DNA of 48,984 bases from an uncultured Candidatus Saccharibacteria bacterium. GTDB lineage: Bacteria; Patescibacteriota; Minisyncoccia; Portnoybacterales; UBA2143. Position 1 is the stretch's first letter, and each line of letters begins with the position of its first letter. The translations under genes and the position numbers were made by a program. The stretch covers positions 1 to 48,984 of the forward strand of contig CAZJBH010000001.1 in the NCBI GenBank assembly GCA_964544485.1, read 5' to 3'. The notes beneath the pieces were generated by a model. That model was not told where the DNA came from. It ran no database searches and saw only the letters and a program-made list of their open reading frames with translations. Positions 7,814 through 41,100 of this stretch are shown piece after piece.

Positions 7814-7818
7814 TTAAT

Positions 7819-10385: not shown

Positions 10386-10391
10386 TAAATT

Positions 10392-10841: not shown

Positions 10842-10856
10842 TTTTAAAAATTTAAA

Positions 10857-11138: not shown

Positions 11139-11143
11139 ATATT

Positions 11144-11815: not shown

Positions 11816-11820
11816 AGATT

Positions 11821-17731: not shown

Positions 17732-19137
17732 TTTTTAAGCAAGCTAAAGATTTGTTGCGGCGAAAAGGCTTTAAGCAGATATAAGCAGGCGAAATAAGCG
17801 AAGACAGCCAGGGGAGCTGTCCAATAAACAGAATTATTTCTTAGAATAAAAAATATTCCAGCCATAATCAAACCTCCAATTAGATATTTAATTAATAATT
17901 TGAAGCTAGGCAATTCTTTCATGATTCGGTAAAGAGTGATTAGCATTAAGCAGGTTACTATTAGTTCGGTAAATAAAGTTGTTCCAGCTGCGCCGTAATA
18001 GGAGTATTTTGGAATAAAAATATAATTGGCAATTAAATTAATTAAAGCGCCAATTCCATAAATATAAAGCAGGGTTTTTTGCTTGGCCAAAGAAATAATC
18101 TGGTTGGAAAAAAGCACTCCTAAAAAGATTATTCCAGTAGCAATAATTAAAAGATTAAGCACTCCGGCTGAAGCAATGAATTCTTGTCCGCCGATTAAAA
18201 CAACTAAGCAATCAGATAAAAAATAAGTTCCGATAATTAGCGGAATAATAAATAAAAGAAGCAAATTCAGCGTTTGTTGGACTGTTTTTTTAAATTTATT
18301 TCTATCTGAAAAAGCGTATTTAGACATTAATGGCATAATTAATCCGACAAACATAGCTGGAAAAAATAATAAGCTTTCTAAAAACTTATAAGCCAAATTA
18401 TAAATTCCAACATGGCTGGCTGGCTGCATTAAAGAAAGCATGATTGTGTCTAACCGAAAATAGATTACTGTAAAAATAGAAGCAATTGCTAGAGGCGCGG
18501 ATTCTTTTAATATTTCTTTCCAATAGCTAATATCAAATTGGAATTTAATCGGAATATATTTTTGGCTAAAAATAAAAGCTAAGCAGAAATTAATTAATGC
18601 TCCGCCAATTAGAGCGCTAAGAATCAATAAAAATCCTAAATCTAGATAAATAAAAAGCACAACCAATCCTAACTGAACAATTCTGGCAAGCACTTCGCTT
18701 AAGGCAATTTTATCCATTCGGAGATATTTTTGGAAAACTCCCATTAAAACTTGTTGATTTGAGTTAAGCCAAAAAGCTAGCGCAGCAATTGCGGTTCCTA
18801 ATTTAACTTCTCCGGGATAAGGAAGAAAATATATAATTATTGGAGCTAAGCTGAAAATAAATAAGCCAAAAAAGAATCTTAAGGTAAAAGCATTATTAGC
18901 GATTTTAATTTCATTGGCTTGAGGTCGAGAAATTTCCCTAACGCAGATAGAATAAAGTCCCAGATCAGCTAAAACAGTGAAGAAATATAAAAAGGCCAAG
19001 ATAGTGGCATAATAACCAAATCCTTCTTGGCCCAAATAACGGGTGATAAATCCAATTGTAATCAAAGAAAGGGCTAGTCCTAAAATTCTAGCCCCGGCCG
19101 AAGCAATTGTATTGTAAGCAATTTGCCTAACTAGCAT
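17728..19137 (-). CDS. MOP-superfamily oligosaccharide/lipid-linked flippase (Wzx/MurJ-like)
   Basis: 469 aa, about 12-14 TM. The N-terminus NTIASAGARILGLALSLITIGFITRYLG is typical of polysaccharide biosynthesis flippases. Confidence 0.7.
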   Translation of the reverse strand: MLVRQIAYNTIASAGARILGLALSLITIGFITRYLGQEGFGYYATILAFLYFFTVLADLGLYSICVREISRPQANEIKIANNAFTLRFFFGLFIFSLAPIIIYFLPYPGEVKLGTAIAALAFWLNSNQQVLMGVFQKYLRMDKIALSEVLARIVQLGLVVLFIYLDLGFLLILSALIGGALINFCLAFIFSQKYIPIKFQFDISYWKEILKESAPLAIASIFTVIYFRLDTIMLSLMQPASHVGIYNLAYKFLESLLFFPAMFVGLIMPLMSKYAFSDRNKFKKTVQQTLNLLLLFIIPLIIGTYFLSDCLVVLIGGQEFIASAGVLNLLIIATGIIFLGVLFSNQIISLAKQKTLLYIYGIGALINLIANYIFIPKYSYYGAAGTTLFTELIVTCLMLITLYRIMKELPSFKLLIKYLIGGLIMAGIFFILRNNSVYWTAPLAVFAYFACLYLLKAFSPQQIFSLLKK

Positions 19138-19940: not shown

Positions 19941-20657
19941 TTAAGTTTTTTCAACTTTGGTAAAGTATTGTTGGATGATTCCGAATAAGGTGATAACGAT
20001 CCAATACAAAGGCAAGCCAGCAGGTAGGCGCATAGCAATAAAAACAGTTATAATCGGCATAAAATATGTCATTTGCTGTCCCATAATTGAGGAAAAATCA
20101 ATTCCTTTGATTTTTAAATTGGATTGATTAGATTTTTTAGGCATAACCATTTTTGCCTGAATAAATTGAAGTATTCCTGCAATAATGGCTAAAATTAAGC
20201 TTGGCGCGGCTAAATCGACTATTCCTAAAAAAGAAGATTTTAATTCAGCCGGGCGGGAAATAAAACCATAAAGAAGATTAAGTTTTTGCGGTTCTAGTCC
20301 GGTATAAAAAACACGGAAAAGCGCGATTAGAATCGGTAATTGAATTAAAATCGGTAAACATCCAGAGACTGGATTAACTTTATATTTTTTATAAAGTTCC
20401 ATCATTTTCTGCGCTTGTTCTTCTTTCTTTTTATATTGTTTTTGGATTTCTTTTATTTTTGGCTGGAGCGCGCTAATGGATTTTTGGGATTGAATTCCTT
20501 TTTTAGATAGGGGAAACATTAAAAGTCTTATTCCAGCGGTTAAGATAATAATTGCTACGCCTAGATCATTAAAAGCAATTGTGTTATAAAGCCAAATTAA
20601 CGCGTTAAATAACGGGCGATAAAGAGCTTCATTAAAAATAGTAATTAAAAATTCCAT
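19941..20657 (-). CDS. yidC: Membrane protein insertase YidC (short form)
   Basis: GCLPILIQLPILIALF and LPLYWIVITLFGIIQQ motifs. Synteny rnpA-yidC-jag. Confidence 0.9.
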   Translation of the reverse strand: MEFLITIFNEALYRPLFNALIWLYNTIAFNDLGVAIIILTAGIRLLMFPLSKKGIQSQKSISALQPKIKEIQKQYKKKEEQAQKMMELYKKYKVNPVSGCLPILIQLPILIALFRVFYTGLEPQKLNLLYGFISRPAELKSSFLGIVDLAAPSLILAIIAGILQFIQAKMVMPKKSNQSNLKIKGIDFSSIMGQQMTYFMPIITVFIAMRLPAGLPLYWIVITLFGIIQQYFTKVEKT

Positions 20658-20662
20658 AATGA

Positions 20663-21016
20663 TTATTTTTGTTCTTTGTTAATAATTAAATTTGCTTTTT
20701 TGATTAAATCTAGCAAGTCTTTTTTAATTGTTTGATAATTTTTGTTTAGAATTTCCGGCTTAGCAATAATAGCTAAATCATATCCTTGTTTTAAATCTTT
20801 ATAGTTTCTGATAATTTCTTCTAGTTTTCTTTTAATCTTATTTCTTTGAACCGCTTTTTTGGAAACTTTAATTCCAATTGCAAAAACAAAACGGTTAAAT
20901 TCAAGTTGGTTTTTTATCCATTTTAATCTCAAAAATTCAGTTTCCTGATAACGGCCTTGTTTGAATAACTGTTCTAGGTTTTTTTTGCCGGTAAGTTTAT
21001 ATTTTTTAGCTAACAT
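20663..21016 (-). CDS. rnpA: Ribonuclease P protein component
   Basis: 117-aa basic protein with KAVQRNKIKRKLEE (RNR-like motif). It sits between rpmH and yidC. Confidence 0.85.
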   Translation of the reverse strand: MLAKKYKLTGKKNLEQLFKQGRYQETEFLRLKWIKNQLEFNRFVFAIGIKVSKKAVQRNKIKRKLEEIIRNYKDLKQGYDLAIIAKPEILNKNYQTIKKDLLDLIKKANLIINKEQK

Positions 21017-21042
21017 AAAAACCTTCCCAATGACTAATGGGA

Positions 21043-21177
21043 TTAAGCAGTTAGTTTTTTTCTTTGCTTGGCGCGCCTTTTTGAAATTACATTTCTTCCG
21101 GGTTTGTCTTGCATTCTTTTTCTGAATCCGTGTTTTGTTTTCCTTTTTCTTTTATTTGGCTTATAAGTAAAAGACAT
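21043..21177 (-). CDS. rpmH: 50S ribosomal protein L34
   Basis: Not in the supplied ORF track (44 aa). My translation is [44 protein letters not shown], with ATG at 21177-21175 and TAA at 21045-21043. Confidence 0.9.
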
Positions 21178-21372
21178 ATTTATTTTATTTAATTAGTCTA
21201 ATTATCTTAACTTTTTTAATCTGATTAGTCAAACTTTATGTAATTTAATTGAATTTTTTAATCCACATTTTTTCCACAGCTTGTTAACAGATTTGCCTAG
21301 TTTTATTTGTTTTGCTATTATGGTAGAATAATTTTAACTTATTAGCAGATATTTATTTGGAGGAAAACTATT
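21178..21372. other. Candidate oriC / dnaA control region
   Basis: 195-bp very AT-rich rpmH-dnaA spacer containing two DnaA-box-like 9-mers. The dnaA-dnaN gap is only 14 nt, so it cannot hold an origin. Confidence 0.4.
21259..21278 (+). promoter_or_regulatory. Two DnaA-box-like 9-mers, one helical turn apart
   Basis: taatccaca (21259-21267) and ttttccaca (21270-21278) are each one mismatch from TTATCCACA. An extended -10-like tggtagaat lies at 21321-21329 and GGAGGA at 21359-21364. Confidence 0.45.
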
Positions 21373-22725
21373 ATGGATCCTAAAGAATTATGGCAAATCG
21401 CGCTTGGCGAAATTGAATTATCTATCTCTAAAGCTAATTTTATTACTTGGTTTAAAAACACTCAAATTCAATCCAAGAAAGACGGCTTGGTAACTGTGAG
21501 CGTGCCAAACGGGTTTACTAAAGAATGGCTGGAGAATAAATATAATAAGCTTATTTTAAAAATTTTGCGAAATAATTCTTCTGATATTAAAGATGTTAAA
21601 TTTGTAATTAATGCTAAATCTAATAAGGTTGAATTCGTTGAAAAAAAAGAAACAGAAAATTTAGAAAACAGCCAATTAGATTTTCAAGAATTTTCTTTGG
21701 ATAAAGAAACTAATCTAAATCCTAAATATAGTTTTGATAATTTTATTATTGGTTCTTATAATGAGCTTGCCCAAGCAGCTGGCCGGGCGATTGTTAAAAA
21801 TCTGGGCAATCTATATAATCCTTTATTTATCTACGGAGGAGTCGGCCTGGGTAAAACCCATTTATTGCAGGCAGTTGGAAATCAAATTAGCAAAGATTCT
21901 CCTAATAAAAAAGTTAAGTATTTGAGCTCAGAAAGATTTACTAATGATCTGATTGACGCTTTATCAAATAAAGGGATGGAGAGTTTTAAGCGGAAACATC
22001 ATAATATTGATACTCTAATTATTGATGATATTCAATTTATTGCCGGAAAAGAAAAGACTCAAGAAGAATTTTTTCATATTTTTAATTCTCTTTATCAAAA
22101 AAATAAGCAAATCATTATTAGTTCTGATCGTCCGCCTAAGGCAATTTCAACTTTAGAAGATAGATTGCGTTCAAGATTTGAAGGTGGAATGATTGCTGAT
22201 ATTAGTTATCCTGATTTAGAGACTAGGTTAGCAATTTTGCAGAGCAAAGCCAAGGAAAAGAAAATAAAAGTTCCGAATGAAGTATTAAGCTATATTGCTA
22301 CTCATATTCAAAAAAATATCCGTGAATTAGAAGGCGCGCTTAATCGAATTATTGCTTATTCGCAGATTAACAATGAAATTCCAAATGAAAAAACAGTTAC
22401 TAAGATTTTAGCTAATCTGATTAAATCTCCTAAAAAGATTACTAATTACAAGAATATACTTAAAACCATAGCTGAATTTTATGATATTAGTGCGAATGAA
22501 TTAATTAGCCGTTCGCGCCGAAAAGAATTAGTCCATCCTAGGCAAATCGGTATGTATCTAATTAGAAATGAATTAAACGGCTCTTATCCTTATATCGGTG
22601 ACAAGCTAGGCGGCCGGGATCATACCACTGTTATGTACGCTTGTCAGAAAATAGCTAAAGAGGTTGAAGCAAATGAATCTTTACAACAAGAGATTAAGCT
22701 AATTAGGGAAAGGATATATAATTAA
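21373..22725 (+). CDS. dnaA: Chromosomal replication initiator DnaA
   Basis: GGVGLGKTHLL, LIIDDIQF, the RELEGAL sensor region, and a C-terminal DNA-binding domain (GGRDHTTVMYACQKI). Confidence 0.97.
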   Translation: MDPKELWQIALGEIELSISKANFITWFKNTQIQSKKDGLVTVSVPNGFTKEWLENKYNKLILKILRNNSSDIKDVKFVINAKSNKVEFVEKKETENLENSQLDFQEFSLDKETNLNPKYSFDNFIIGSYNELAQAAGRAIVKNLGNLYNPLFIYGGVGLGKTHLLQAVGNQISKDSPNKKVKYLSSERFTNDLIDALSNKGMESFKRKHHNIDTLIIDDIQFIAGKEKTQEEFFHIFNSLYQKNKQIIISSDRPPKAISTLEDRLRSRFEGGMIADISYPDLETRLAILQSKAKEKKIKVPNEVLSYIATHIQKNIRELEGALNRIIAYSQINNEIPNEKTVTKILANLIKSPKKITNYKNILKTIAEFYDISANELISRSRRKELVHPRQIGMYLIRNELNGSYPYIGDKLGGRDHTTVMYACQKIAKEVEANESLQQEIKLIRERIYN

Positions 22726-22739
22726 GGGAGGTAACTAAA

Positions 22740-23840
22740 ATGCAAATTACAGTTTTACAAGAAAATTTTAAAAAAGCCTTAACTACGTCTGAAAAAATTA
22801 TCGGCAAGAATTTAACTTTGCCTATTCTAAATAATCTTCTTTTATCTATTGAGAACAATAAATTAAAAGTTTCTTCAACTAATTTAGAAATTGGAATTAA
22901 TGCCTGGGTTTCCGGCAAGATTGAAAAAAAAGGAGCAATCACCGTGCCAGCGCGCCTATTAGTTGATTTTGTTAATAATCTTCCAAATGAAAAAATAGAT
23001 TTAAAAGTAAAAGAGAATCAGTTAGAGATAAAATGTAAAAAATATCGGGCTTTAATCAAAGGATTAAGCGCAGATGATTTTCCAATTATTCCCCAATTAA
23101 AAGAAAAGCCGATTTTAAGCTTAAAAGGGAATCTTTTGCGGGATGGTTTTTCTCAGGTGGTGAATATGACCTCTATCTCAGAGTCAAGGCCTGAGATTTG
23201 TGGGATTTATAGCGTTTTTGGCAAAAAATCAATCAAATTAGCTGCGACTGACAGTTTTCGTCTAGCAGAAAAAGAAATTAATCTTGAAAAGACTCTGGCT
23301 AAGGAAGAAACAATGATTATTCCACAAAGAACAATTTATGAATTAATCAGAATTTTATCTGATCAAGAAACTGAAACTTCAATCGTTGTTTCAGAAAACC
23401 AAATTTTGTTTGATCTAGGGAATATCCAAATTGTTTCTCGCTTAATTGAAGGAAAATACCCTGATTATCAGCAGATTATCCCAAAGCAGACAAAGACCAA
23501 GGTTACGGTTAATAAGCAGGAATTAACTAAAGCAATTAAGATAGCAAGTTTGTTTTCTGGAAAGATTAATGATATTAAATTAAATATTAATCCGACTAAA
23601 AATATTCTTGAAGTTTCTTCTAAAGATGCTGATTTAGGCGAAAATAAATCACAAATTCAGGCAGAAATTCAAGGAGATCAAATTGAGGCTATTTTTAATC
23701 ATCGTTATTTAATGGATGGTTTAAACAATCTTTATTCTGACAAGATTATGATTGGTTTAAATGATAGTATTAAACCGGTTATAATTCATCCGATTGGAGA
23801 TACTAATTATACTTATGTAGTTATGCCAATTCGGGTATAA
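22740..23840 (+). CDS. dnaN: DNA polymerase III beta sliding clamp
   Basis: 366 aa directly after dnaA. LIEGKYPDYQQIIP motif and C-terminal YVVMPIRV. Confidence 0.95.
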   Translation: MQITVLQENFKKALTTSEKIIGKNLTLPILNNLLLSIENNKLKVSSTNLEIGINAWVSGKIEKKGAITVPARLLVDFVNNLPNEKIDLKVKENQLEIKCKKYRALIKGLSADDFPIIPQLKEKPILSLKGNLLRDGFSQVVNMTSISESRPEICGIYSVFGKKSIKLAATDSFRLAEKEINLEKTLAKEETMIIPQRTIYELIRILSDQETETSIVVSENQILFDLGNIQIVSRLIEGKYPDYQQIIPKQTKTKVTVNKQELTKAIKIASLFSGKINDIKLNINPTKNILEVSSKDADLGENKSQIQAEIQGDQIEAIFNHRYLMDGLNNLYSDKIMIGLNDSIKPVIIHPIGDTNYTYVVMPIRV

Positions 23841-26520: not shown

Positions 26521-27735
26521 ATGAATCAACAAGAATTAATTCAACAAGCTTTAACTCGGGGAGTAGAAAATGTTTATCCTGATTGTAAAAGTTTAGAAAA
26601 GCGTTTGCTTTCCGGTAAAAAAATGCGTTTGTATTGCGGATTTGATCCAACCGGACCGTCCTTACATATTGGTCATGCGATTCAGATTCGTAAATTAGCC
26701 CATTTTCAGAAATTAGGACATCAGGTAATTTTTTTAATTGGAGATTTTACCGGCATGATTGGAGATCCAACTGACAAAGCAGAAGCGCGCAAGAAATTAA
26801 CCAGACAAGAAGTTTTAAAAAATTCTGCGAATTATCAGGAGCAAGCCAGCAAGCTTTTGTCTTTTGATGGGAAAAATCCAGCTAAGGTGATGTATAATAG
26901 CGAGTGGAACGATAAGCTTAGCTTTGTTGATTTAATTGAATTGGCTTCTAATTTTACAGTTGGACAAATGATTGTTCGGGATATGTTTCAGGAAAGGATA
27001 AAAAACAAAAAGCCAGTTTATTTACATGAATTTTTTTATCCTTTAGCTCAGGCTTATGATAGCGTAGCGATGAATGTGAATTTAGAAGTAGGAGGGAATG
27101 ATCAGACCTTTAATATGTTATGCGGTCGAGATTTGATTAAAGCGGTTAAAAACAAAGAGAAATTTGTTTTAACAACCAAATTATTATCAGACGCATCAGG
27201 GATGAAAATGGGCAAAACAATTGGCAATATGATTAGTTTAGACGAAGAGCCAAGTGAAATATTTGGCCAAATTATGGCTTGGCCGGATGAATTAATTATT
27301 CCTGGGTTAGAACTTTGCACTGATTTGCCGATTAAAGAAATTGAACAAATAGAAAAAGATATTAAAATAGATAAAATGAATCCGCGCGATGCTAAGGCAA
27401 GATTAGCTAGAGAGGTAGTATTAATTCATCATGGAGAAAAACAAGCTCAACAAGCAGAGCAAGAATTTAACCGGATTTTTAAAGAAAAAGACAAACCGAG
27501 CCAAATTCCTGAATTTAAAATAGATAAAAAGAAATACAATATTTTAAATTTGTTAGTTGAGACTAAATTAACTAATAGCAAAGGCGAAGCCAGAAGATTA
27601 ATTCAACAAGGGGGTGTTAAAATAGATAATAAAAAAATCTCTGATACTGAAACAGAGATTGAGTTAAAAGATAAAATGGTGATTCAAGCCGGTAAAAGAA
27701 AGTTTATTCAGGTAAAAATAGATAATCAAGAATAA
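26521..27735 (+). CDS. tyrS: Tyrosine--tRNA ligase
   Basis: HIGH (LHIGHAI), KMSKS variant KMGKT, and a C-terminal S4 domain (GEARRLIQQGGVKIDN). Confidence 0.95.
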   Translation: MNQQELIQQALTRGVENVYPDCKSLEKRLLSGKKMRLYCGFDPTGPSLHIGHAIQIRKLAHFQKLGHQVIFLIGDFTGMIGDPTDKAEARKKLTRQEVLKNSANYQEQASKLLSFDGKNPAKVMYNSEWNDKLSFVDLIELASNFTVGQMIVRDMFQERIKNKKPVYLHEFFYPLAQAYDSVAMNVNLEVGGNDQTFNMLCGRDLIKAVKNKEKFVLTTKLLSDASGMKMGKTIGNMISLDEEPSEIFGQIMAWPDELIIPGLELCTDLPIKEIEQIEKDIKIDKMNPRDAKARLAREVVLIHHGEKQAQQAEQEFNRIFKEKDKPSQIPEFKIDKKKYNILNLLVETKLTNSKGEARRLIQQGGVKIDNKKISDTETEIELKDKMVIQAGKRKFIQVKIDNQE

Positions 27736-28723
27736 TTTTGGCAATATTTCTGCTTTGTCCTTGATGGGGGAAATGATGTGTCCAGATGCCGGGTCCAGCA
27801 TTAATTTCAATAATTTTTCCTTTAGTTTGATCTATTGGCTGGCTAATATCTTTAGCAATTATATCTACTCCGCCAATTTCTAGATCAAGCGCTTGAATCG
27901 CCTGAACAGCGATTTTTTTATTGATTGAATGAACTTGCTCGGTTATATCTTTGATTGCTGCTCCAGTGCTAAAGTTGCCATTTTCTCTAAGGCGGATAGG
28001 TTTGTTTTTTTCTAGAATTGAGCCAAGCTGGTAGTTTTGTTTAGCCAAAGTGTTTTTAAGATGTTGATCAATTGGGATCGGTTTTAAATAAGGAGCAAAA
28101 GAATCAGCTCTGCTTTTCCTATTTTTATTTTCCCAATCAATTAATTTTCTAATTGTTTTTTTGCCATCTCCTGTAATTTGGGGAAGTTTTTTTTGAGTAG
28201 CTGCTATAAATCTATCTTTGATAATCAATAAGCGATAATCTTTACCTTGAATTTGTTTTTCAATAATCAAAGAAGGATATTTTTGAAGCAGTGTTTTAGC
28301 TTTTCTTTTTAGTTGTTCAATTTTTTTGATAGATAATAAAATATCTGAGCCGCCTTTTTCCGCAACCGGCTTAATCACCCAGGGCGGACTAATGGATAGA
28401 TTTTTTAAGTCGCTAAGCCGGGTGATTTTTTGCATTTGGCTAACCGGCAATTGTTTTTCTTTTAAAATCTGATTAGTTAGATATTTGAATAAAGTTAAGT
28501 CGCAAGCGGTTTTAACGTTAAAGTATCCCCGTTTAGGGCAGATCCATTTTGTTTTTTCTTTTTGTTCCAATTTTAAATAAAGGATTTTTTTATTCTTGAG
28601 CGGTCTTTTTTTGATTTGACAATCAATATTTTGATTTATTGCTTCTTTGATTAATAAAGCGGAGATAGGAAAGTTTAAATAGTCTTTTGCCTGAATTTTG
28701 TTTTTTGTTTGTGTTTTTATCAT
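27704..28723 (-). CDS. ATP-grasp ligase resembling the cyanophycin-synthetase ATP-grasp domain (no Mur-ligase-like domain)
   Basis: WVIKPVAEKGGSD, GKDYRLLII, and C-terminal GGVDIIAKD...IIEINAGPGIWTHHFPHQGQSRNIAKIILDYLF. Confidence 0.65.
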   Translation of the reverse strand: MIKTQTKNKIQAKDYLNFPISALLIKEAINQNIDCQIKKRPLKNKKILYLKLEQKEKTKWICPKRGYFNVKTACDLTLFKYLTNQILKEKQLPVSQMQKITRLSDLKNLSISPPWVIKPVAEKGGSDILLSIKKIEQLKRKAKTLLQKYPSLIIEKQIQGKDYRLLIIKDRFIAATQKKLPQITGDGKKTIRKLIDWENKNRKSRADSFAPYLKPIPIDQHLKNTLAKQNYQLGSILEKNKPIRLRENGNFSTGAAIKDITEQVHSINKKIAVQAIQALDLEIGGVDIIAKDISQPIDQTKGKIIEINAGPGIWTHHFPHQGQSRNIAKIILDYLFLPE

Positions 28724-28724
28724 T

Positions 28725-30215
28725 TTATCCTTTAGCTAAAAGACTTGGTTTGAAAAACTTTTTAAGCTTTATCCATCGGATTGGCTTAAGGTCAAAAGAT
28801 TGATAAACGCTTTGAGCTACTTGTTTAGCCCATGGATTAAGTGATTTAAAAGAATTGTCTAAAGCTCGTTCAAGGGTAAGGATTCGGCAAAGTCTGCGAT
28901 TTGGGCTAAAATGAGATCCTTTAAAAGGAACTCCATCAGCTAAAATGAATTCTTTTTCATTTTTAAGATGTTTTAAATCATAGCCGGGACGGAGATAATA
29001 GGGTTGATTGCTTTTTAATTTATAGATTCCGGCTTTAAGCTGTTGGTGATTTCTAGCCCAGCGTCCGGAAAGATTATGCAGGATCATTTGGCTGCCTTTT
29101 TTCTTTTGCCGGATTAAATCATTTATTTTTCTTAAATCTATTTGATAATCTTGCTTTAGGAATTCTAGCGCGTGAAAGGCAATAATTGGCGGTTCATTGT
29201 TTAAGAGCTGAGCCATATTGATTACCGGGAAAGATCCTAATAAACGGGGATTGCATTCTATTGTATAAAGTTGTTTTTTGTTTGAGTTAAAGATAAAATC
29301 TAATCCAAAAATTCCTTGATATCCCAATTCTTTAAGCCGATATCCGATTTTTTCCGCGGCTTGATAAGCCTGATTTTCAATCTCTTGGTCAAATTGAGAA
29401 CTTGTCCAGTCATGCCCGCAAAAAAGTCCGGAACCTTTTTCCGGATTATATAATTCAGGAATATCTAAAATTTGATGCTGGAGATTAGTTGAAAGAATTC
29501 CCCGGCTGGTAACACAAGCAGTAATTGAAGGAGATGATCCTTGGATGTGTTTGGCTACAATTACTTGTTCGGTTGGCTTAATTTTTTTTTCTTCTTCTGG
29601 ATCATATTTCTGTTTTAGTTTTTCTAGCGCATTTTGAAAATTTTCTTGATTATTGATAAAAAAAGTTCCTTTGCCTCCGCCTTTAGTTGGATGCTGGATT
29701 ACAAAAGGAAGCCCGTATTTATTGATTAAATGCCCGTAATGAAGATTTTCTACTGAACATATTTTTCCAGGCGGAGTTTTTAAATTTAATTCTTGAAGTA
29801 ATTTTCTGAATTTGATTTTATCTTCTAGCATTTTTTTGCCAAAGTCAGTTGGATTAGCAATCAATTGCCAATTGTTTTCTTGGCAGATTTGTTCCATTTT
29901 AGAAGAAGCTTTGTGGACAATAATTGCCGGAGAATTAAATTTGTTTAAGTATTTTTTAGTTTGTTCAAGTTTTAAAACAGTGGTTGCGTTTCTTGGCTCT
30001 TGGATATGCTTTACTCCCATGCCTTTTTCCAAAGAAAGGGTTTCTATATCCTTCTCAATTAATTTAGTGTCCAAGCTATAACGCAGAGTTAATAAGCGAT
30101 AAGGATTGGCAATTTCTTCCATGCCAAGCCGGTCAAAAGCATAAACTCCAGCTCCAAAAATCGGAGTTTTTATTGTTTTAAAATATTTTTTAAGAGTAGG
30201 TAAATCTTGAATCAT
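28725..30215 (-). CDS. ATP-grasp ligase with a long pre-ATP-grasp N-domain, specificity unknown
   Basis: FVIQHPTKGGGKGTFFI and GIFGLDFIF...LYTIECNPRL. I prefer the MIQDLP start at 30215 (1 nt after the upstream stop) over the track start at 30266. Confidence 0.6.
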   Translation of the reverse strand: MIQDLPTLKKYFKTIKTPIFGAGVYAFDRLGMEEIANPYRLLTLRYSLDTKLIEKDIETLSLEKGMGVKHIQEPRNATTVLKLEQTKKYLNKFNSPAIIVHKASSKMEQICQENNWQLIANPTDFGKKMLEDKIKFRKLLQELNLKTPPGKICSVENLHYGHLINKYGLPFVIQHPTKGGGKGTFFINNQENFQNALEKLKQKYDPEEEKKIKPTEQVIVAKHIQGSSPSITACVTSRGILSTNLQHQILDIPELYNPEKGSGLFCGHDWTSSQFDQEIENQAYQAAEKIGYRLKELGYQGIFGLDFIFNSNKKQLYTIECNPRLLGSFPVINMAQLLNNEPPIIAFHALEFLKQDYQIDLRKINDLIRQKKKGSQMILHNLSGRWARNHQQLKAGIYKLKSNQPYYLRPGYDLKHLKNEKEFILADGVPFKGSHFSPNRRLCRILTLERALDNSFKSLNPWAKQVAQSVYQSFDLKPIRWIKLKKFFKPSLLAKG

Positions 30216-30216
30216 G

Positions 30217-31545
30217 CTATTTTTTAATTGAATTTTTGCGCATAAAAACATTTTTAGCCGGGTCAACTAAGAATCTTTTTAAATCGCGCCGTCCAATGAT
30301 AATATCATATTTCATTTCTTTGCGGTCAGCTACAAAAGCTTCAGAGCTGACTAATCTTTTATCTAAAACAAAATTTAGATTAATAATCGGACGCTCTTGA
30401 GATCCTAAGGATCCGCGCACCTTTTTTGTTCCAATTATATGCGTTAGCCCTAAATCATTGGCCAGGCTTTGGCAAATAGTGGTTCGGTAAGCGCCAGTAT
30501 CAATTTTAGCCATAATTGAATGTCTTTGCCTGTGTTCGTCTAAAATTTCAATTGGTTCATTAACTCCGATTACTTTTCGTCCGGAAATTTCTTCTAATTC
30601 TTCTTCAATTTCTCCGCCAAATAAATCTTGGGCTAAATTAACTCCTTTGTTAATTGTTTTAACTTTTAATCCTTTGACTCTTTTTAAACGATCTTGCAAA
30701 GGAGCAAGATTGGCAATTTGAATAGAAAGTCCGGGTCGAGTATTTAATTCAAGGATAACCGGTCCCTTATCTCGATCAATTGCAATATCAATTCCTAAAA
30801 ACCCGATTCTAGAAATCAATTGGGCATGAATAGCCATTCTAAGCGCTTCTTTCCATTCAGGAATGTGAATACCGCGAAGAGGTAGCCGGCTATCAGGAAG
30901 ATATTCAATAATTTGATCTTTTTGAATAGCAGTCGTAGTCACTCCAGTGCCCATATCAATTCCTACTCCAATTCCGCTTAAGTGAAGATTTGCTCGTCCG
31001 CCTGATTCTTTAGTTGGCAGTCTTAGTTCAGCCATAATTGGGACGCCATTGTAAATAATAATTCTAATATCAGGAATTCCGCGATAGCTGTAAGGCTTAA
31101 AAAGTTTTAAGAGTTTGATTCTTTCTTCAAAAAAAGCAATGTCTGGCAATCCGGTTTTAGAAAAGTTTCCTTCAAGTATGTTTAAGATATGATTTTGCAG
31201 ATCTTTAACTTGAACAGTTTTTTTATCAGCTTTAACCCAGGGACAGGGAGCTTGTTTTTTTCTTCCGTAAACAATTAAAATTCCTTCTCCTCCTAAACCG
31301 CGATTCGGCTTTAAAGTAAAGCTTTTCGGAAGTATATTCCAGTCAAAGTTTTTTAATTCTTCATAGTTTTTAATTATTGCGAAATCTTGAAGCACAGGCA
31401 AGCCATTTCGGCTGAGTAATTTTTTGGCTAAAAGCTTGTTATCAGCAATGCGATTAGCCCTCTTAGTGTTAGAGGGCTTTAAATAAAGTAGGTTGCGGGC
31501 GTTAATTCCTAGAACAGGGTTTGATTTTTGAATAAATTTTAGCAT
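30217..31545 (-). CDS. RimK-related (alpha-L-glutamate-ligase-like) ATP-grasp fused to a retropepsin-like RimB/PF05618-type protease domain
   Basis: N-terminal GINARNLLYL..NTKRANRIADNKLLAKKLL and ELNTRPGLSIQ. The C-terminal domain has AKIDTGAYRTT (DTGA signature) and DIIIGRRDL. I prefer the MLKFIQ start at 31545. Confidence 0.65.
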   Translation of the reverse strand: MLKFIQKSNPVLGINARNLLYLKPSNTKRANRIADNKLLAKKLLSRNGLPVLQDFAIIKNYEELKNFDWNILPKSFTLKPNRGLGGEGILIVYGRKKQAPCPWVKADKKTVQVKDLQNHILNILEGNFSKTGLPDIAFFEERIKLLKLFKPYSYRGIPDIRIIIYNGVPIMAELRLPTKESGGRANLHLSGIGVGIDMGTGVTTTAIQKDQIIEYLPDSRLPLRGIHIPEWKEALRMAIHAQLISRIGFLGIDIAIDRDKGPVILELNTRPGLSIQIANLAPLQDRLKRVKGLKVKTINKGVNLAQDLFGGEIEEELEEISGRKVIGVNEPIEILDEHRQRHSIMAKIDTGAYRTTICQSLANDLGLTHIIGTKKVRGSLGSQERPIINLNFVLDKRLVSSEAFVADRKEMKYDIIIGRRDLKRFLVDPAKNVFMRKNSIKK

Positions 31546-31546
31546 G

Positions 31547-32218
31547 CTATTTCTTGGTCTTTTTTTCCGGTATTTCAATATTTTTAATTACTTGCCTAAA
31601 ACGGTAAAGTTCGGTTAAGCGCAAACCAGTCCATTTTCCTAGGAGAATATTAATTAAGATTGTAATCAGGATGGTTAGCAGTGGATAAGCTAAAACTATA
31701 GATTGGAGCCATGGCCAAAGAGCTATCCAATAGCAGATAATTGACAAGATTAAGGTTTCTAAGGTTAAAATAATTGCTTCTCGATCGCCTCTTTCAATTT
31801 GCGCGGCAATGAATTTTTCTACTAAAGTAGTCATAACAACAATTGCAAAAATAGAGACAGTGATTAAATTATTAAATTCAAAGTATGAACCTAACAGTAT
31901 GATTAAAAGAATTGCTACTGCTACTGAAGTAATTACTAAAGCCATGCGAGGCAGGTATAAGAGGCGCGATTTTCTAACTAAAAGACGCATGAATGTGCCA
32001 ACTATCATGATGATAACAAAAAAAGCAAAACCATAGGTTAAGCCCAAGGTAATAAATGCATAAGCAATAATCAAAGGTGTATAAATGCCAAATCCTTTAA
32101 TTCCGACAATCTGTCTGGCAAAAGCGATTACCAGAGCGGTAATCGGCAGCATTAAAAGAAGAATAATTGTTTCTTCTGGCGCGCCTTGGCTAATCATATA
32201 GCTAGTAATTGAAGACAT
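31547..32218 (-). CDS. Seven-TM membrane protein of the type associated with ATP-grasp/transglutaminase systems (7TM_transglut-like)
   Basis: Seven hydrophobic spans. The QIVGIKGFGIYTPLIIAY motif is as I recall it for that family. No transglutaminase domain is present. Confidence 0.5.
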   Translation of the reverse strand: MSSITSYMISQGAPEETIILLLMLPITALVIAFARQIVGIKGFGIYTPLIIAYAFITLGLTYGFAFFVIIMIVGTFMRLLVRKSRLLYLPRMALVITSVAVAILLIILLGSYFEFNNLITVSIFAIVVMTTLVEKFIAAQIERGDREAIILTLETLILSIICYWIALWPWLQSIVLAYPLLTILITILINILLGKWTGLRLTELYRFRQVIKNIEIPEKKTKK

Positions 32219-32230: not shown

Positions 32231-32704
32231 TTAATTATTTTCGCTGTTAGCGCAGCAAATAGCAGCGGCTAAAGCGTCAGCCGCATCATCTGGCTTAGGG
32301 ATTTTGTCTAGGTTTAATAAAAGTTTAACCATTTTTTGGACTTGCATTTTTTCCGCTCTTCCATAGCTGGTAATTGCTTGTTTGATTTGCAAAGGAGTAT
32401 ATTCCAAAATTGGTATTTTTAAATTAGCAGCTCGAGACAAAATAACTCCTCGCGCTTGGCTCACTTTAATTACTGTTTTAGTATTTTTAAAAAAAAATAA
32501 ATCCTCGACTGCTATTTTTCCAGGTTTATATTCTTTGATAATTTTTTTTAATTCTTGATCTAATTGAGAAAGTCTTACTCCAGTAGAGAATTTTGGCTCG
32601 GTTCTAATGCAACCGTATTCAATTAATTCAATTTGATTTGCTTTTTTTTGGATTAGTCCGTAGCCAGTAATAGCAGTTCCTGGGTCAATTCCAAGGATGA
32701 TCAT
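32231..32704 (-). CDS. ruvC: Holliday junction resolvase RuvC
   Basis: MIILGIDPGTAITGYG, VEDLFF, PKPDDAADALAAAIC. Confidence 0.9.
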   Translation of the reverse strand: MIILGIDPGTAITGYGLIQKKANQIELIEYGCIRTEPKFSTGVRLSQLDQELKKIIKEYKPGKIAVEDLFFFKNTKTVIKVSQARGVILSRAANLKIPILEYTPLQIKQAITSYGRAEKMQVQKMVKLLLNLDKIPKPDDAADALAAAICCANSENN

Positions 32705-32719: not shown

Positions 32720-33256
32720 TTATTTCAAATTACTGTAAATTTCTTGAATATCATCATTTTCATCCAATGCTTCAAAAAGTTTTTTTAATTGGATTTTGTC
32801 TTTTTCTTCAACTTCAACTTCATAATTTGGGATCCACTCTTCTCCTTCACGGCGAAATATGTACCGGACGCTGCCAGCTTCTGCCATTTTAGCATTATGT
32901 TTGCTAAGAATATTTTTAATTTCTGAAAGCGTTCTATTTTTGTTATCAGTAATTCCCTGAATAATTAAAGCTACTCCAGCTGGTCCATAGGCTTCATAAG
33001 TGATTTCTTCCATTTGGGCGCCTTCTAATTGTCCGGTTCCTTTTTTAATTGCCCGTTCAATATTTTCTTTAGGCATATTTGCCTCTTTGGCTTTATCAAT
33101 CGCAGTTCTTAATTTTGAGTTACTTTCCGGATCAGCGCCTTTTTCTTTGGCAGCTACTGAAATTAAGCGAGATATTTTAGAAAATAACTTGCCTCGTTTT
33201 GCGTCAGCCGCGCCTTTTTGATGTTTGATATTTGACCATTTTGAATGTCCACTCAT
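32720..33256 (-). CDS. yebC: YebC/PmpR-family protein, shortened (178 aa)
   Basis: [40 protein letters not shown], and DDIQEIYSN at the C-terminus. It is about 60-70 aa shorter than canonical homologues. Confidence 0.85.
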
Positions 33257-33298: not shown

Positions 33299-34642
33299 TT
33301 ATATGTTAAAAGTATTTTTTTTGCGAGTTAGGATAATAAGCCAGCTGATGAATAAGCAAGAAGAAATAAGAATGGAAAGATAAAGAATAAGTTTTGGGTT
33401 TTGGCTGGTTGGAGAAGATTGATTTAGGGAAACTGTTTGTTTATTCGCGGTATTATTCGCAGCTTGGACAACTAATTTGTTTTTTGAATCAATTTTAGAA
33501 TAGTTTTGTTTTGGTTCTGGCTGATTGGTTTGATAATTTTGAGTTTGGTTTAATTGAACAGCTAAAGTCTGGGCAGGTTCTTGGCTAGTTTGGATTTGCG
33601 GCTTTGGATTATTCTTTGGATAATTTTGAGTTGATTCGTTTTTGTTTGAAGAAATAATATTAGCGGTTCCCGGGGTAGGCATAGTCGTCCAAAAATATTC
33701 TTGGCCGTCAAAAGCAACTGCTTGGCCTTGTTTTTTTTCGGCTAAATAGCTTATCTCAGCAGCTATATTTCCGTTCGGATAAATCAGCCTTACTTGATCT
33801 TCGTCATTATTTAACGCTAATTTGGTAATTAAACGCTGAAAAACAACAAATTCTTTGGGAAAAATTAAGGTGTTTTGAGGGAGGGTGAATGGCTTGCTTC
33901 CATCAGGCATGTCATCTAATTGCCAATTAGATAAATCAGCTGTTTGTTCGCCTTGATTATATATTTCTATCCATTCATTTTCCGCGTCTTTTCCTTCAGG
34001 GTTGGGGATAAATTCAGAAATAATCAAATTATCGCTATAAATACTTATTTTAACAAAATCCGTATTGGTTAATTTGCCATCGTCTACTTCTAAAACAACT
34101 AAATATTCGCCGGGATATTGGTAAATATGGGTAGTTGTCGCCTGGTTATCAGTCGCTCCATCTCCAAAATTCCAAAAATAGGTTAAAGAATCATTTTCTG
34201 GGTCAGAAGAAGCAGTTCCGTCAAAAAAGATTTCTTGATTAGTTAAAGCGGTTATATCTGGCCCGGCTTTGGCGATTGGAGCTTGATTACTGGGCTGGTT
34301 GTTTGGACTAGTTGAAGGAGTTGAAATTTCATTTGTTTCGTTTGATGGAGTAGTCGTACTAGTTTCTGGTTCTGATGTATCTTCTGGCAGATAGGCTAAT
34401 CCTTGATCTTTTATTTTTTGCAAAGTTTTTTCGCCAATACCGTTTATGTTTATTAAATCATCAATCGAAGAAAAAGGCCTGTTATCTATTATTCGTTGGG
34501 CGTAAACAGGTCCAATTCCTGTTATTATTTGCAGCTCTTCAATCGTAGCAGTATTAATATCTATTTTTTCTTGAGCTGAGGCAATAAATGTTACAAATAG
34601 AAAGCAAAAGATTAATATTGTTTTTAACACTTTATTTTGCAT
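33299..34642 (-). CDS. Surface-anchored ComEA-like (HhH) - PKD - lamin-tail-domain fusion protein
   Basis: Signal peptide. HhH pair IDINTATIEELQIITGIGPVYAQRII...INGIGEKTLQKI. PKD FDGTASSDPENDSLTYFWNFGDG. LTD LIISEFIPNPEGKDAENEWIEIYNQG..DLSNWQLDD. C-terminal TM. Confidence 0.7.
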   Translation of the reverse strand: MQNKVLKTILIFCFLFVTFIASAQEKIDINTATIEELQIITGIGPVYAQRIIDNRPFSSIDDLININGIGEKTLQKIKDQGLAYLPEDTSEPETSTTTPSNETNEISTPSTSPNNQPSNQAPIAKAGPDITALTNQEIFFDGTASSDPENDSLTYFWNFGDGATDNQATTTHIYQYPGEYLVVLEVDDGKLTNTDFVKISIYSDNLIISEFIPNPEGKDAENEWIEIYNQGEQTADLSNWQLDDMPDGSKPFTLPQNTLIFPKEFVVFQRLITKLALNNDEDQVRLIYPNGNIAAEISYLAEKKQGQAVAFDGQEYFWTTMPTPGTANIISSNKNESTQNYPKNNPKPQIQTSQEPAQTLAVQLNQTQNYQTNQPEPKQNYSKIDSKNKLVVQAANNTANKQTVSLNQSSPTSQNPKLILYLSILISSCLFISWLIILTRKKNTFNI

Positions 34643-38124: not shown

Positions 38125-41100
38125 TTATTTGTCATAATGTCCGGTCGTTCTTTCAACCTCTTCAAGCGTAGTAATCCCTTTGGCTGCTTTAATTAATCCA
38201 TCTTGATAAAGCGTAAGCATGCCGTTTTCTTCAGCAATTTTTTGAAGTTTATTTGGTCCGGCTGAAGCATTGATTTGATTGCGTATTTCTTGAGTTGGCT
38301 CCATAATTTCAAAAATAGCAATTTGTCCGTTATACCCTTTTTGATTGCAAGCATCGCATTTGCCGGGTTGGTAAAATTTAATTGAATCTAATCCTTGTTT
38401 GTATTTGTCTGGTATTTTAGCAAGTTCTTGTTCAATTTTTTTCTTTTTTTCTTGAGAAAGCTCAATTTCTTGCTTACATTTATCGCATAATTTTTTAACT
38501 AAGCGCTGAGCAATAATCATTCTTAGAGAAAAACTAATATCATTTGGGTCAATCCCTAATCCAGTTAAGCGCTGAATTGACTCTATCGCGCTATTAGTAT
38601 GAAGCGTAGTTAAAACTAAATGTCCGGTTAATGATGCTTCAACTGCAGCTTTAGCTGTTTCTTTGTTTCTAACTTCTCCAAGCATAACAATGTTTGGATT
38701 CTGTCGCAAAAGCGCTTCTAATGCATTGGCAAAAGTATATCCTTCTTCTTCATTGACCTGGGTTTGAACAATTCCTTTTAAGCGATATTCAATCGGATTT
38801 TCAATTGTAAAGATTTTAGTTTCTGGCCGATTAAGTTTGTTAAGGACAGAATAAAGCGTGGTGGTTTTTCCGGCTCCGGTAGGTCCGGTGACAAAAATGA
38901 TTCCATTTGGCATGCGAATATTTTGTTCAATTACTTTTTGGGCTGCCGGCAAAAGACCCAAATCGCTTAAGGAAATTACTCCGATTTCAGATTCAAGCAA
39001 GCGGACAATTAAAGATTCTCCGTATCCGCTCGGTAAAGCGGAAATACGCGCGTCAGTTGAATGCCCGTCAGGATAAGAGATTTTAAAGCGTCCGTCTTGA
39101 GCTCGATTATGAGTCTCTAATTCCATGCCAGCTAATTCTTTAATTTTGTTAACCATAGGCAGGAATAATTCTTTGGAAACTGTAGCAACTTCTTCCATGC
39201 TTCCTTGAATTCTTAATCTGATTTTAAAGTCATTTTCTCCAGCTTCAAAATGAATATCAGACGCTTTTAAAGAGCTGGCAATGGCAACTGTCCATTCAGG
39301 CAATTTTTCCATTTTAACATTATTTAACTTGTCTTGTATTTTATTAACATCTAGCTTTAATCCTTTAGCCCATTCAGCGATGTCTTCAGTAATAATTAAG
39401 GCTTTGGTTAAGATAGACATAATCGCGTCTCCGTAAAGCTGTTCAATATATTTCGGAGATCCAATTACCCGGCGAATTTCATCAAGCGTAGTTACTCCTT
39501 CAATAATTTTTAACATAGCGTCTTGCATTAAAGTAACCATTCCTTCTTGCATGACTTTGGCGCGAATTTCATAAGCAGTTGCCTGATTAATGATTAAATC
39601 TTCAATAGATTCAGTTACTGGCAAAACTTCAAAAATACCAATTCTTCCCTTATACCCAATTCCATGGCATTTTTCACATCCTTCGGCTTTATAGAATTTA
39701 TCTATTTTTTTAGGAATATCCAGGCCTGATTTGGCTGAAATTAAAGAGAATATTTTTTTAGCGCTTTCAACCATGGCTTTATCCGGTTTGTACGCTTTTT
39801 TACAGTCTGGACAAAGCTTTCTGACTAAGCGCTGGGCAATGATTAGATTAAGCGCGGTTGGCAGTAAAGACGGTTTAATCCCAATATCAGTTAAGCGCGG
39901 AATGGTTGCAGCTGCGTCATTGGTGTGAATTGTAGAAAAAACAATATGTCCGGTTAAGGCAAAATGCATAGCTATTTCAGCGCTTTCCTTGTCTCGAATT
40001 TCTCCAACCATTAAAGCGTCCGGATCTTGTCTGACAATCGCTTTTAAACTTTGAGCAAAGGTTTGCCCTTTTTTAGAGTTGATTTGGGTTTGGGTAATTC
40101 CGGGTAATCGGTATTCAATCGGATTTTCTACAGTAATTATTTTTTTGCCTGGTTTGTTGATATAGTTTAGGCAAGCATATAGCGAAGTTGTTTTTCCTGA
40201 TCCGGTTGGTCCGGTAGTCAAAACCATTCCATTTGGCCGATTAATTTGGCTTTCTATTAAGGGATAAATTTCTTTTCTTACTCCTAATTCAGATATATCT
40301 AATTTAACCGTTCCAACTCCGAGCAATCTAAGGACAACGCTTTCTCCGTGAATGCTGGGCAGAATAGAAACGCGAATATCTATTTTTTTAATTTCTTTTT
40401 CTTTGTCCAGAATTTTTACAGTAAATCTTCCATCTTGGCTTACATCTCTGACATTAAGCATCATTTCAGAAAGGGTTTTGATTCTTGAAAGTAGAAAACG
40501 GTAATTTTCCGGGTCAAAACTGGTAATATCTTGTAGTAATCCGTCTATGCGATAACGCAATCTAATTTGTTTTTTTTCCGGCTCTATGTGAATATCTGAA
40601 GAGCCCATTTTAATTGATCCGGCAATAATGATTGAAAGGAGTTTGCTGGTTGAGAGTTTTTTTACTTTTTTCCTAAGATCTTGAATAGTAGCTAGTGATT
40701 TTTCAAACTCTTTCATTTCTTCTTGTTGGAGAATTAAAACCCCTCTTAAGGAAACTCCTTGTTTTTTAACTAATTCATATCTTTTTAGTCCTAAGTTAAT
40801 GCTTCTTTGGGAAACAAGAAAAAAATGGCAGGTATATCCCTTTTCTTTCAGCTCTTTAACAATTTTTTGCGTTTCTGAATATTTGGGATTAACAACTGCT
40901 AGATAAAGTTCGTAATTTATTTTTTTAATTATCAGGCTATTTGCTTGTTTGGCTTTTTCTTTGGGAAGAATTGCTAAAGCGTCAGGATTAATCGGCGTAG
41001 TAGTTAAGTCTAAATAAGGGAGGTTTAATTTTTCAGCTTTTCGCTTAGCCCTCCTTTCTTCTTCTTTTTGTTTGATTAGCTCAAGCTTAGTTTTGAACTG

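Follow-up and report, generated by a model that had tools for sequence, protein, structure and literature searches.

The rloABC operon of Pseudomonas aeruginosa and Gammaproteobacteria encodes a secreted retropepsin, RloA, which like RimB cleaves runs of at least eight glutamate residues, together with RloB, an inactive transglutaminase joined to a seven-transmembrane (7TM) region, and RloC, an ATP-grasp protein (Lormand et al., mBio 2025, PMC12239564). Here we describe a module of four closely spaced minus-strand genes, A-B-C-D, at positions 27704-32218 of contig CAZJBH010000001.1 (assembly GCA_964544485.1), which derives from an uncultured Candidatus Saccharibacteria bacterium (GTDB Patescibacteriota; Portnoybacterales; UBA2143) and was analysed over a window of 48,984 nucleotides (nt). 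The evidence favours, by a modest measure, the reading that this module is the form taken in the candidate phyla radiation (CPR) by an Rlo-type amidoligase system, which would make and trim an acidic, probably glutamate-rich, envelope peptide.

In Pseudomonas, a triple protease mutant dies in low-salt medium and displays cell-shape, biofilm and beta-lactam defects, and deletion of either rloB or rloC suppresses the protease-null defects, including lethality (PMC12239564). Because of this suppression, RloB and RloC are considered to make what RloA removes. The killing of the protease-null strain in low salt could be the work of an untrimmed polyanion, which is our suggestion and not that of Lormand et al. 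The system thus bears strongly, in Pseudomonas, on the integrity of the envelope, on tolerance of antibiotics and on biofilms; Lormand et al. did not succeed in identifying its substrate and suggested poly-alpha-glutamate peptides or polyglutamylated proteins (PMC12239564). A homologue of RloB influences membrane-vesicle production in Shewanella (J Bacteriol 2025, PMC12096838), and both reports cite Iyer et al. 2009. The first-pass annotation of this DNA had regarded such neighbourhoods as experimentally uncharacterised, which stands for the product and no longer holds for proteobacterial RloABC, where genetics and protease biochemistry are available (PMC12239564). Given that RloB was reported as 96% proteobacterial, the CPR forms are not covered by that work (PMC12239564). 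Our literature searches found no later work on the Rlo system beyond the 2025 paper and nothing on CPR versions; a search on ATP-grasp or RimK proteins of Patescibacteria and on the Pfam families concerned was likewise empty, a paper on the CDC123 ATP-grasp being without this system. The 7TM/ATP-grasp/protease neighbourhood itself was reportedly predicted bioinformatically by Iyer and colleagues in 2009, a point corroborated indirectly at most.

Conservation of the A-B pair and variation of the downstream cassette

In order to place the module among its relatives, one genome per GTDB species was scanned with two conserved peptides of B, which gave 80 related loci (numbered L where they have to be told apart). 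The window proteins were compared with these loci by tblastn, and the co-oriented open reading frames (ORFs) downstream of B were clustered and their representatives scanned. The loci carry mostly Patescibacteria titles (Parcu-, Portnoy-, Morani-, Kuenen-, Andersen- and Dojkabacteria) and a few other or generic labels, and all of them appear to be CPR. Several of those deposited as 'Saccharibacteria', 'Gammaproteobacteria' or 'Bdellovibrionales' show a gene order typical of Parcubacteria. In all 75 loci whose upstream sequence extends over 800 nt or more, gene A directly precedes B. Identities of B range over 40-77% in the 80 loci and over 64-88% for the 120 closest database relatives, every one of which has the same fusion length.

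The slot after B varies, holding from none to three further ligases or MATCAP carboxypeptidases; nearly all of its occupants are amidoligases or carboxypeptidases. C-like ligases follow B in about 33 of the 80 loci, and ligases resembling RimK or the G domain of CphA account for 52 ORFs, with at most three in a row, in Dojkabacteria. Metallocarboxypeptidases of the MATCAP type (PF08014) belong to the cassette as well, typically between B and C, and the other cassette genes encode a RimK/TTL-like ligase, an ATP-grasp_4 protein and DUF3541. One accessory ligase matches PF03133 TTL, some of those in sister loci come near the RimK family (113-119 bits, cut-off 143), and in the cassette of L013 a MurF-like Mur ligase precedes a RimK-like one. 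Among the 61 loci with at least 3.5 kb of downstream sequence, eight are devoid of a co-oriented cassette gene after B, and about five share the order of this window, a C-like and then a CphA-G-like gene; in several of the eight, such as L038, L040, L064 and L071, tyrS directly follows B. Since the A-B pairing holds throughout while the slot after B varies, A and B are predicted to be the functional core and C and D lineage-specific accessories. The conserved four-gene order that had been proposed is therefore borne out for A-B, and not for C, nor for C followed by D.

Two candidate observations from these loci were discarded. Apparent A-B fusion ORFs in L039 and L075 proved to be artefacts of N runs and unmasked stop codons. 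The contig of L048, labelled 'Candidatus Pacearchaeota archaeon', encodes ribosome recycling factor, Pol III delta' and ParAB; given these bacterial markers the contig is bacterial and probably mis-binned, and gives no evidence of an archaeal copy.

Gene B, a ligase-retropepsin fusion

Gene B (30217-31545, minus strand, 442 amino acids (aa)) encodes an ATP-grasp ligase fused to a retropepsin. Its ATP-grasp domain (residues 8-310, 30616-31524) matches PF14397 (E 3.4e-62, 210.6 bits, cut-off 31.4) and spans positions 9-314 of the 317 of TIGR02291, 'alpha-L-glutamate ligase-like protein' (E 1.8e-75), a family to which RloC itself may belong; the domain is predicted to be an RloC-type amino-acid ligase. 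Residues K79, D253, E266 and N268 are invariant across 51 homologues, and the conserved N-terminus of B carries LGINARN. In the AlphaFold2 model of B (mean predicted local confidence, pLDDT, 78.9) the ligase domain is nearest to ArgX/LysX and RimK, enzymes that lengthen the C-terminus of a protein or peptide with amino acids; the CphA1 G domain, PsnB and Ddl rank lower. The score of B against the RimK model TIGR00768 itself is 30.4 bits (cut-off 143.4).

The C-terminal domain (residues ~323-434, 30244-30579, minus strand) is a retropepsin-like domain of the RloA/RimB type, matching PF05618 with E 5e-9 and 36.6 bits, above the cut-off of 27. The RloA models outscore the RimB model for this domain, the RloA3 model reaching 31.6 bits (cut-off 210), and its sole matches among PDB sequences are 9G59 and 9G58, the RloA crystal structures of Lormand et al. 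The alignment to these structures shows conservation of the K-x-DTGA, ERP, DR and G..L+RF..VDP motifs. The retropepsin motif K347-x-D349-T-G351-A352 is intact (DTGA, residues 349-352, at nt 30490-30501) and the arginines of the ERP and DR motifs are conserved; K347, D349, R385 and R408 are invariant or nearly so, and D349, G351 and A352 are invariant across the 51 homologues. Since there is no N-terminal hydrophobic segment and no signal peptide, B is predicted to be cytoplasmic, its protease domain included.

Between the two domains lies an acidic linker that translates as FGGEIEEELEEISGRKVIG (30565-30621, minus strand). The pattern FGGE[IV]EE.[LIV]E..SG[RK] is kept in nearly all of the 80 loci, down to 40% identity, and is absent from an unfused 316-aa ATPgrasp_ST protein (L084). 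The AlphaFold2 model is unconfident at this point, with pLDDT below 50 for residues 315-320. Given that it directly precedes an acid-specific retropepsin, the segment FGGEIEEELEEISG could be an autoprocessing or pseudo-substrate site. The idea that the linker and the DTG motif are lost together was considered and rejected as inconsistent: L082 loses both, L049 the linker alone and L073 and L077 the aspartate alone.

Gene A, a membrane protein with little predicted outside the membrane

The product of gene A (31547-32218, minus strand, 223 aa) matches PF14402, 7TM_transglut (E 2.5e-35), and covers only positions 312-508 of the 508 of the RloB model NF052267 (E 1e-26, 93.8 bits, cut-off 900), which is to say the part of RloB that lies in the membrane. 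Seven hydrophobic segments are present, very little of the protein is predicted to lie outside the membrane, and an additional N-terminal domain is found in none of 78 CPR A proteins. Lysine and arginine residues cluster in alternate loops and in the C-terminal tail (nine K/R), with none at the N-terminus, and because of this distribution the N-terminus is predicted to be outside and the C-terminus inside. The cytoplasmic tail carries a conserved GKWTGLRLxEYxRF stretch, and R35, G39, R200, E203 and F207 are invariant; this tail probably partners B in docking or hand-over. A matches no transporter family, and a profile of A against PDB sequences gave no match.

Together with gene C, described below, A and B account for all the families that the first-pass annotation had expected (PF14402, PF14397/TIGR02291, PF05618 and generic ATP-grasp models). 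It had also named the outcomes that would have spoken against its proposal, namely ligases of ordinary pathways, an unrelated transporter and a synteny unique to this genome; no transporter family was matched and 80 related loci were found, and the ligases fared as follows.

Genes C and D, predicted accessory ligases

When B, C and D were compared with Ddl, PurK/PurT, CarB, AccC, GshB, LysX and CphA, none reached a family cut-off, and LysX gave no match at E<=0.01 for any of the three. The PADLOC defence-system models gave no match for A-D at E<=1e-3.

Gene C (28725-30215, minus strand, 496 aa) encodes a CPR-restricted ATP-grasp protein, a predicted accessory ligase. Its Pfam matches are to generic ATP-grasp families alone, and its best curated match is to NF005096 (PRK06524 'biotin carboxylase'), end to end, with E 2e-41 and 141.6 bits (cut-off 684). 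Scores against accC (31.8 bits, cut-off 626.5), purK (31.7, cut-off 318.4) and the carbamoyl-phosphate synthase large subunit (36.1, cut-off 1027) are low. Its AlphaFold2 model (pLDDT 93.1) has a three-domain biotin-carboxylase/PurK-like fold and superposes on biotin-carboxylase and PurK domains with template-modelling (TM) scores of ~0.55 at 11-15% identity, and there are no biotin-carrier or carboxyltransferase genes near C. Conserved in 55 C homologues are GSGLFCGHDW (residues 261-270), C234 and a terminal LAKG (residues 493-496) in which K495 and G496 are invariant; C reads VIQHP where the ATP-binding lysine motif 'hhhKP' is usual. There are 351 detectable homologues, of which the 120 listed are all of ~500 aa, and all the source-named ones among these are from Patescibacteria/CPR. 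C-like genes were seen solely beside A-B, in the 80 loci and in two look-ups of homologues (54-56% identity), both of which adjoin A-B with a MATCAP gene between.

Gene D (27704-28723, minus strand, 339 aa) is a stand-alone ATP-grasp protein of the CphA G-domain type and also a predicted accessory ligase. It covers positions 203-472 of the 862 of TIGR02068 (CphA; E 3.5e-76, 256.9 bits, cut-off 850), and residues 54-338 align to the G domain, an ATP-grasp, of cyanophycin synthetases of solved structure, CphA1 (7wac, 5e-38) and also CphA2 (7ta5). No Mur-ligase domain was found in D or elsewhere in the operon, so the earlier description of D as a CphA-like ATP-grasp without that domain is confirmed. 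D scores 46.9 bits against Ddl (cut-off 243), 161.8 against GshAB (425) and 35.2 against RimK TIGR00768. It is 27-46% identical to its counterparts in other loci, as against 55-80% for A, B and C among closer relatives. These comparisons lend no support to a poly-Asp product of D in the manner of CphA, or to any particular substrate of C.

Gene starts, junctions and expression signals

The mechanical ORF list places B at 30217-31578 (453 aa) and C at 28725-30266 (513 aa), each from an upstream TTG. A database protein identical to B has 442 aa, matching an ATG start at 31545, and the N-termini of more than 50 homologues each of B and C align at the internal-ATG residues; on this basis the internal ATGs (31545 for B, 30215 for C) are predicted to be the real starts. 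With these starts, every junction within A-B-C-D, read directly together with the ORF list, has a 1-nt gap: aaaTAGcATGct at 31549-31543 for A/B and aaaTAGcATGat at 30219-30213 for B/C (both TAG-c-ATG), and ggaTAAaATGat at 28727-28721 for C/D (TAA-a-ATG). The A/B and B/C junctions are both embedded in 'aaatagcatg'. Such 1-nt gaps argue for coupled expression of A-B-C-D. Upstream, the TAA of ruvC (32233-32231) is separated by a 12-nt spacer from the ATG of A at 32218, which makes co-transcription of ruvC and A probable; downstream, the 3' end of D and the convergent tyrS share 32 nt (27704-27735). These readings agree with the first-pass annotation on the 1-nt gaps and internal starts, the shared atagcatg string, the 12-nt spacing and the overlap with tyrS.

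The strongest sigma-70-like match in a scan of 26.4-34.8 kb lies at 33294-33265 (minus strand), upstream of yebC, where TTGACA-18-TATGAT agrees at 11 of 12 positions, and is a candidate operon promoter. It had been put forward as the only good promoter. It does rank at the top, but further 10/12 matches occur at 32728-32700 and 29842-29815 (both minus strand), and the total in the scan is at chance level (27 observed, 28.8 +/- 5.8 in shuffled sequence). As the total is at chance level, the scan does not prove a single yebC-ruvC-A-B-C-D transcript, with which the arrangement is compatible. No terminator-like site was found on the minus strand 3' of D within the scanned region, as had been noted before.

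The wider 7TM and ATP-grasp family

The family of A is small, as an exhaustive HMMER search brought up 1673 representatives out of 1.84 billion at E<=1e-3. Many of the closest relatives of A (40-54% identity) are proteins of 500-750 aa with an N-terminal PKD domain before the 7TM region, and one sampled relative has an active-type Transglut_core domain in that position. Outside the short-form lineage, the gene contexts repeat the pairing with a ligase. In L081 a PKD-7TM protein is followed by a B-like ligase-retropepsin fusion and then by RimK-like ligases and PBP1A. In L082 a PKD-7TM protein is followed by a 792-aa fusion protein (7578-9956, plus strand) and another ATP-grasp, the 792-aa protein comprising ATPgrasp_ST, a degenerate retropepsin (KINLQS for KIDTGA) and a MATCAP metallocarboxypeptidase, so the peptidase partner seems to have been replaced there during evolution. 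In L084 a Transglut_core-7TM protein precedes the unfused ATPgrasp_ST mentioned above. Because these three contexts repeat the 7TM and ligase pair, we propose from the comparison that the 7TM protein and the PF14397 ligase are the ancient core, to which a peptidase has been attached repeatedly and an extracellular domain optionally. The architecture of this window, by comparison, appears confined to CPR.

The gene upstream of yebC (33299-34642, minus strand) encodes a surface protein with a ComEA-type helix-hairpin-helix, a PKD domain and a lamin-tail domain (LTD). PKD thus occurs both here and in fusion with 7TM homologues elsewhere, which may be fortuitous or may point to an extracellular partner in common.

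Genomic neighbourhood and other features of the window

Upstream of the module lie ruvC (32231-32704, minus strand; PF02075 4e-51), the immediate neighbour of A, and yebC (32720-33256, minus strand; PF20772 5.8e-35, PF01709 5e-30), a short, 178-aa member of the TACO1/YebC family; the convergent tyrS (26521-27735, plus strand) bounds the module on the other side. Among the related loci with room, 58 of 67 have ruvC, mostly with yebC, ahead of A, and yebC stands upstream of ruvC-A-B in at least 48. The loci in which ruvC is missing upstream of A are chiefly of the Dojkabacteria type, which are the most divergent. Two loci with C homologues show the larger syntenic block, LTD protein - yebC - ruvC - A - B - MATCAP - C - tyrS (convergent) - PBP1A - dnaN. 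In most Parcubacteria-type loci a co-oriented PBP1A follows downstream, and it abuts the module in L042, L047, L055, L057, L059 and L070. Since the yebC-ruvC link is absent in the most divergent relatives it says little on function, and from gene order we take ruvC, yebC, tyrS and PBP1A to be neighbours by origin-proximal lineage synteny, which would not be evidence of shared function. The association with yebC-ruvC to which the first-pass annotation had drawn attention is thus conserved, as lineage synteny in a block that also takes in tyrS, PBP1A and dnaN.

The Pfam C-terminal YebC domain matches the YebC of the window in two pieces, and in the distant loci L029-L031, L037 and L041 the tblastn match of YebC is split at residue 138, with ~180 nt between the parts; the YebC of this lineage seems, from these alignments, to have lost ~60 residues of the C-terminal domain. 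At 19941-23840, YidC (minus strand) is arranged head-to-head with DnaA and DnaN (plus strand), and dnaA/dnaN at 21.4-23.8 kb mark the usual neighbourhood of a replication origin. The amidoligase module lies ~4-10 kb from dnaN, and the surrounding block is syntenic in distant CPR relatives.

Elsewhere in the window, a 1001-aa protein (38125-41130, minus strand) contains two T2SSE (PilB/GspE-type) stretches and an MshEN domain and looks, by its domain content, like a tandem-duplicated pilus or secretion ATPase. Type IV secretion-like genes at 8016-13656 (plus strand) encode a 789-aa TrbL/VirB6-like membrane protein and a VirB4/TraG-type P-loop ATPase; the ORFs flanking them have no Pfam match. 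A surface-glycan cluster at 15244-19137 (minus strand) comprises a tandem pair of Wzy_C (O-antigen ligase-like) genes and, after them, a Polysacc_synt/MATE-type flippase.

Proposed function and alternative explanations

If the module is an Rlo-type system, B would link amino acids at the expense of ATP into a peptide or tail that is alpha-linked, acidic and most probably glutamate-rich, and its retropepsin domain, presumably dimeric, would cut, trim or size this product. C and D would add further or different residues onto the product of B, and MATCAP in sister lineages would do the reverse of this addition, as in the tubulin TTL/MATCAP cycle. A would dock B and receive, anchor or pass on the product at the membrane, in which case the system would act on the cell envelope. 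This scheme fits the genetics of Pseudomonas, where the genes for production are epistatic to those for the protease, in the sense that the ligase makes and the protease removes. That ligase and protease are naturally fused, and that MATCAP takes the place of retropepsin in other lineages, is genomic evidence of an independent kind for ligation and trimming acting on one molecule. The membrane-associated, ribosome-independent peptide machine of the first-pass annotation remains, as a general ligase/peptidase reading, the best supported one; the three ligation specificities do not survive as a fixed set.

Several points weigh against this proposal. The ligase domain of B scores 253.9 bits against TIGR02291, below the equivalog cut-off of 314.2, and a glutamate specificity for B draws on analogy and on the conserved basic residues of its protease domain. 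The CPR gene A is devoid of the transglutaminase-like periplasmic domain that defines RloB, and could be a regulator or anchor and not a conduit. The protease of B is predicted to be cytoplasmic, whereas RloA acts in the periplasm, so the logic of export followed by trimming is not simply transferable. In L073 and L077 (Dojkabacteria) the B homologues have NTG for DTG but retain the linker and the remainder of the domain, which implies that proteolysis is not universally required; the retropepsin domain may have a binding role as well as a catalytic one. Finally, C could, from its modelled carboxylase-type fold, catalyse a reaction other than peptide ligation.

Other explanations start from the ligases themselves. 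B might add and trim poly-glutamate on ribosomal protein S6 or on another cytoplasmic protein, in the manner of RimK and RimB, with the 7TM protein as a tether or regulator. The proximity of the B fold to RimK, the cytoplasmic protease domain, which RimB shares, and the near-RimK scores of some accessory ligases in related loci (113-119 bits against 143) are all in agreement with this idea, which we nonetheless regard as unlikely, given that B reaches 30 bits against RimK TIGR00768 and 254 against the RloC-type model, that the protease scores favour RloA, that rimK loci have no obligate membrane partner such as the one present here in 75 of 75 loci, and that no S6 gene or other acidic-tailed acceptor lies nearby. 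Somewhat less improbable, and still doubtful, is a cell-wall system in which the ligases act on peptidoglycan precursors, cross-bridges or a lipid-linked envelope component together with the neighbouring class A penicillin-binding protein. The co-oriented PBP1A downstream of most Parcubacteria-type loci, sometimes abutting the module, invites this view, as do the MurF-like Mur ligase inside the L013 cassette, the cell-shape and beta-lactam phenotypes of the Pseudomonas rlo mutants and the vesicle effect of the Shewanella RloB homologue. The PBP1A adjacency is, however, part of the origin-proximal block and is gone in Dojkabacteria, which retain A-B and ligases; moreover, the retropepsin and MATCAP partners suggest peptide or protein tails, and D scores 47 bits against Ddl (cut-off 243).

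A split synthase of a cyanophycin-like storage polymer or other poly-amino acid would account for the match of D to the CphA1 G domain and for the Mur-type ligase and ATP-grasp of L013, which are the two catalytic domain types of CphA. We consider it very unlikely: D is the least conserved and most dispensable of the genes (27-46% identity, missing from most loci), the invariant genes being A and B, and the locus has no M domain, cyanophycinase or isoaspartyl dipeptidase. The dense packing of CPR genomes, in which yebC-ruvC, tyrS and PBP1A are equally syntenic with no obvious functional link, raises the prospect that C, D and perhaps A-B are unrelated enzymes brought together by genome compaction and inherited synteny. 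An accident of this kind would hardly fill the slot after B almost exclusively with changing amidoligase and carboxypeptidase families, keep C-like genes beside A-B alone, or extend the A-B pairing beyond CPR, and so this is also a highly improbable explanation. A graspetide-like pathway, in which a precursor encoded in the genome would yield a ribosomally synthesised and post-translationally modified peptide, seems remoter still: the graspetide ligase PsnB is among the fold matches of B, but ranks under ArgX and RimK and belongs to different Pfam families, and the 1-nt and 12-nt gaps leave no space for a precursor gene in the operon.

A more far-reaching version of the A-B system, to which we give a rather low probability, is that of a minimal, near-universal CPR machine for a 'peptide-tail code', which would do in bacteria what tyrosination and glutamylation do on tubulin tails. 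The ligase, docked at the membrane, would build an acidic tail on an envelope-associated acceptor; C, D and the RimK-like and TTL-like ligases would write terminal residues, and retropepsin or MATCAP would erase them. The linker FGGEIEEELEEISG would control the protease as an autoprocessing or pseudo-substrate site, its processing might create the first acidic C-terminus for the ligase to extend, and coupling to cell-wall synthesis would run through the adjacent PBP1A.

Returning to the Rlo-type reading, all the domains concerned are already in Pfam/NCBIfam, and genetic studies of the proteobacterial member are available from 2025 on. Apparently undescribed are the CPR architecture of a bare 7TM protein and a signal-peptide-free ligase-retropepsin fusion, its breadth and strong conservation across Patescibacteria, the modular ligase/MATCAP cassette and the conserved acidic linker. 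The identity of B among its closest relatives (64-88%) and across the 80 loci (40-77%) suggests an important function for the module in CPR genomes shorn of most biosynthesis. The variable ligase cassette suggests a lineage-specific peptide chemistry at the surface of these host-attached organisms, and the two-protein A-B system would be simpler to reconstitute.

Comparison with known systems

The module resembles RloABC in joining a 7TM_transglut-family protein, an ATP-grasp, probably of the PF14397/TIGR02291 type in both, and a PF05618 retropepsin with intact catalytic motifs, and the basic residues of the poly-glutamate-binding channel of RloA lie in motifs that are conserved in B (K-x-DTGA, ERP, DR). 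It differs in that the protease, separate and secreted in the case of RloA, forms the C-terminal part of the ligase polypeptide and lacks a signal peptide, and in that the gene order is another one, with one to three extra ligases or MATCAP peptidases attached in CPR.

RimK is the poly-alpha-L-glutamate ligase for ribosomal protein S6 and RimB its retropepsin. The RimK-RimB pair shares with B the combination of a cytoplasmic ATP-grasp and a cytoplasmic retropepsin on one acidic tail, as well as a related ligase fold; in contrast, B falls outside the RimK family by score, unites ligase and protease in one polypeptide and has an obligate membrane partner, and no rpsF was found within the window. 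As to CphA1 and CphA2, D aligns to the G domain across nearly its whole length (E 5e-38), but lacks the N-terminal and Mur-ligase-type (M) domains of CphA1 and is an optional accessory of the module. C has the three-domain fold of biotin carboxylase and PurK (TM ~0.55) and matches NF005096 end to end, yet is 11-15% identical to biotin carboxylase and carries the CPR-specific invariant motifs GSGLFCGHDW and a C-terminal AKG. The tubulin TTL/TTLL and MATCAP enzymes offer an analogy, with distant homology alone, in which ATP-grasp ligases extend an acidic C-terminal tail by further residues and a MATCAP metallopeptidase removes them; this window contains no MATCAP gene, whereas other CPR loci have one between B and C and L082 has a ligase-MATCAP fusion.

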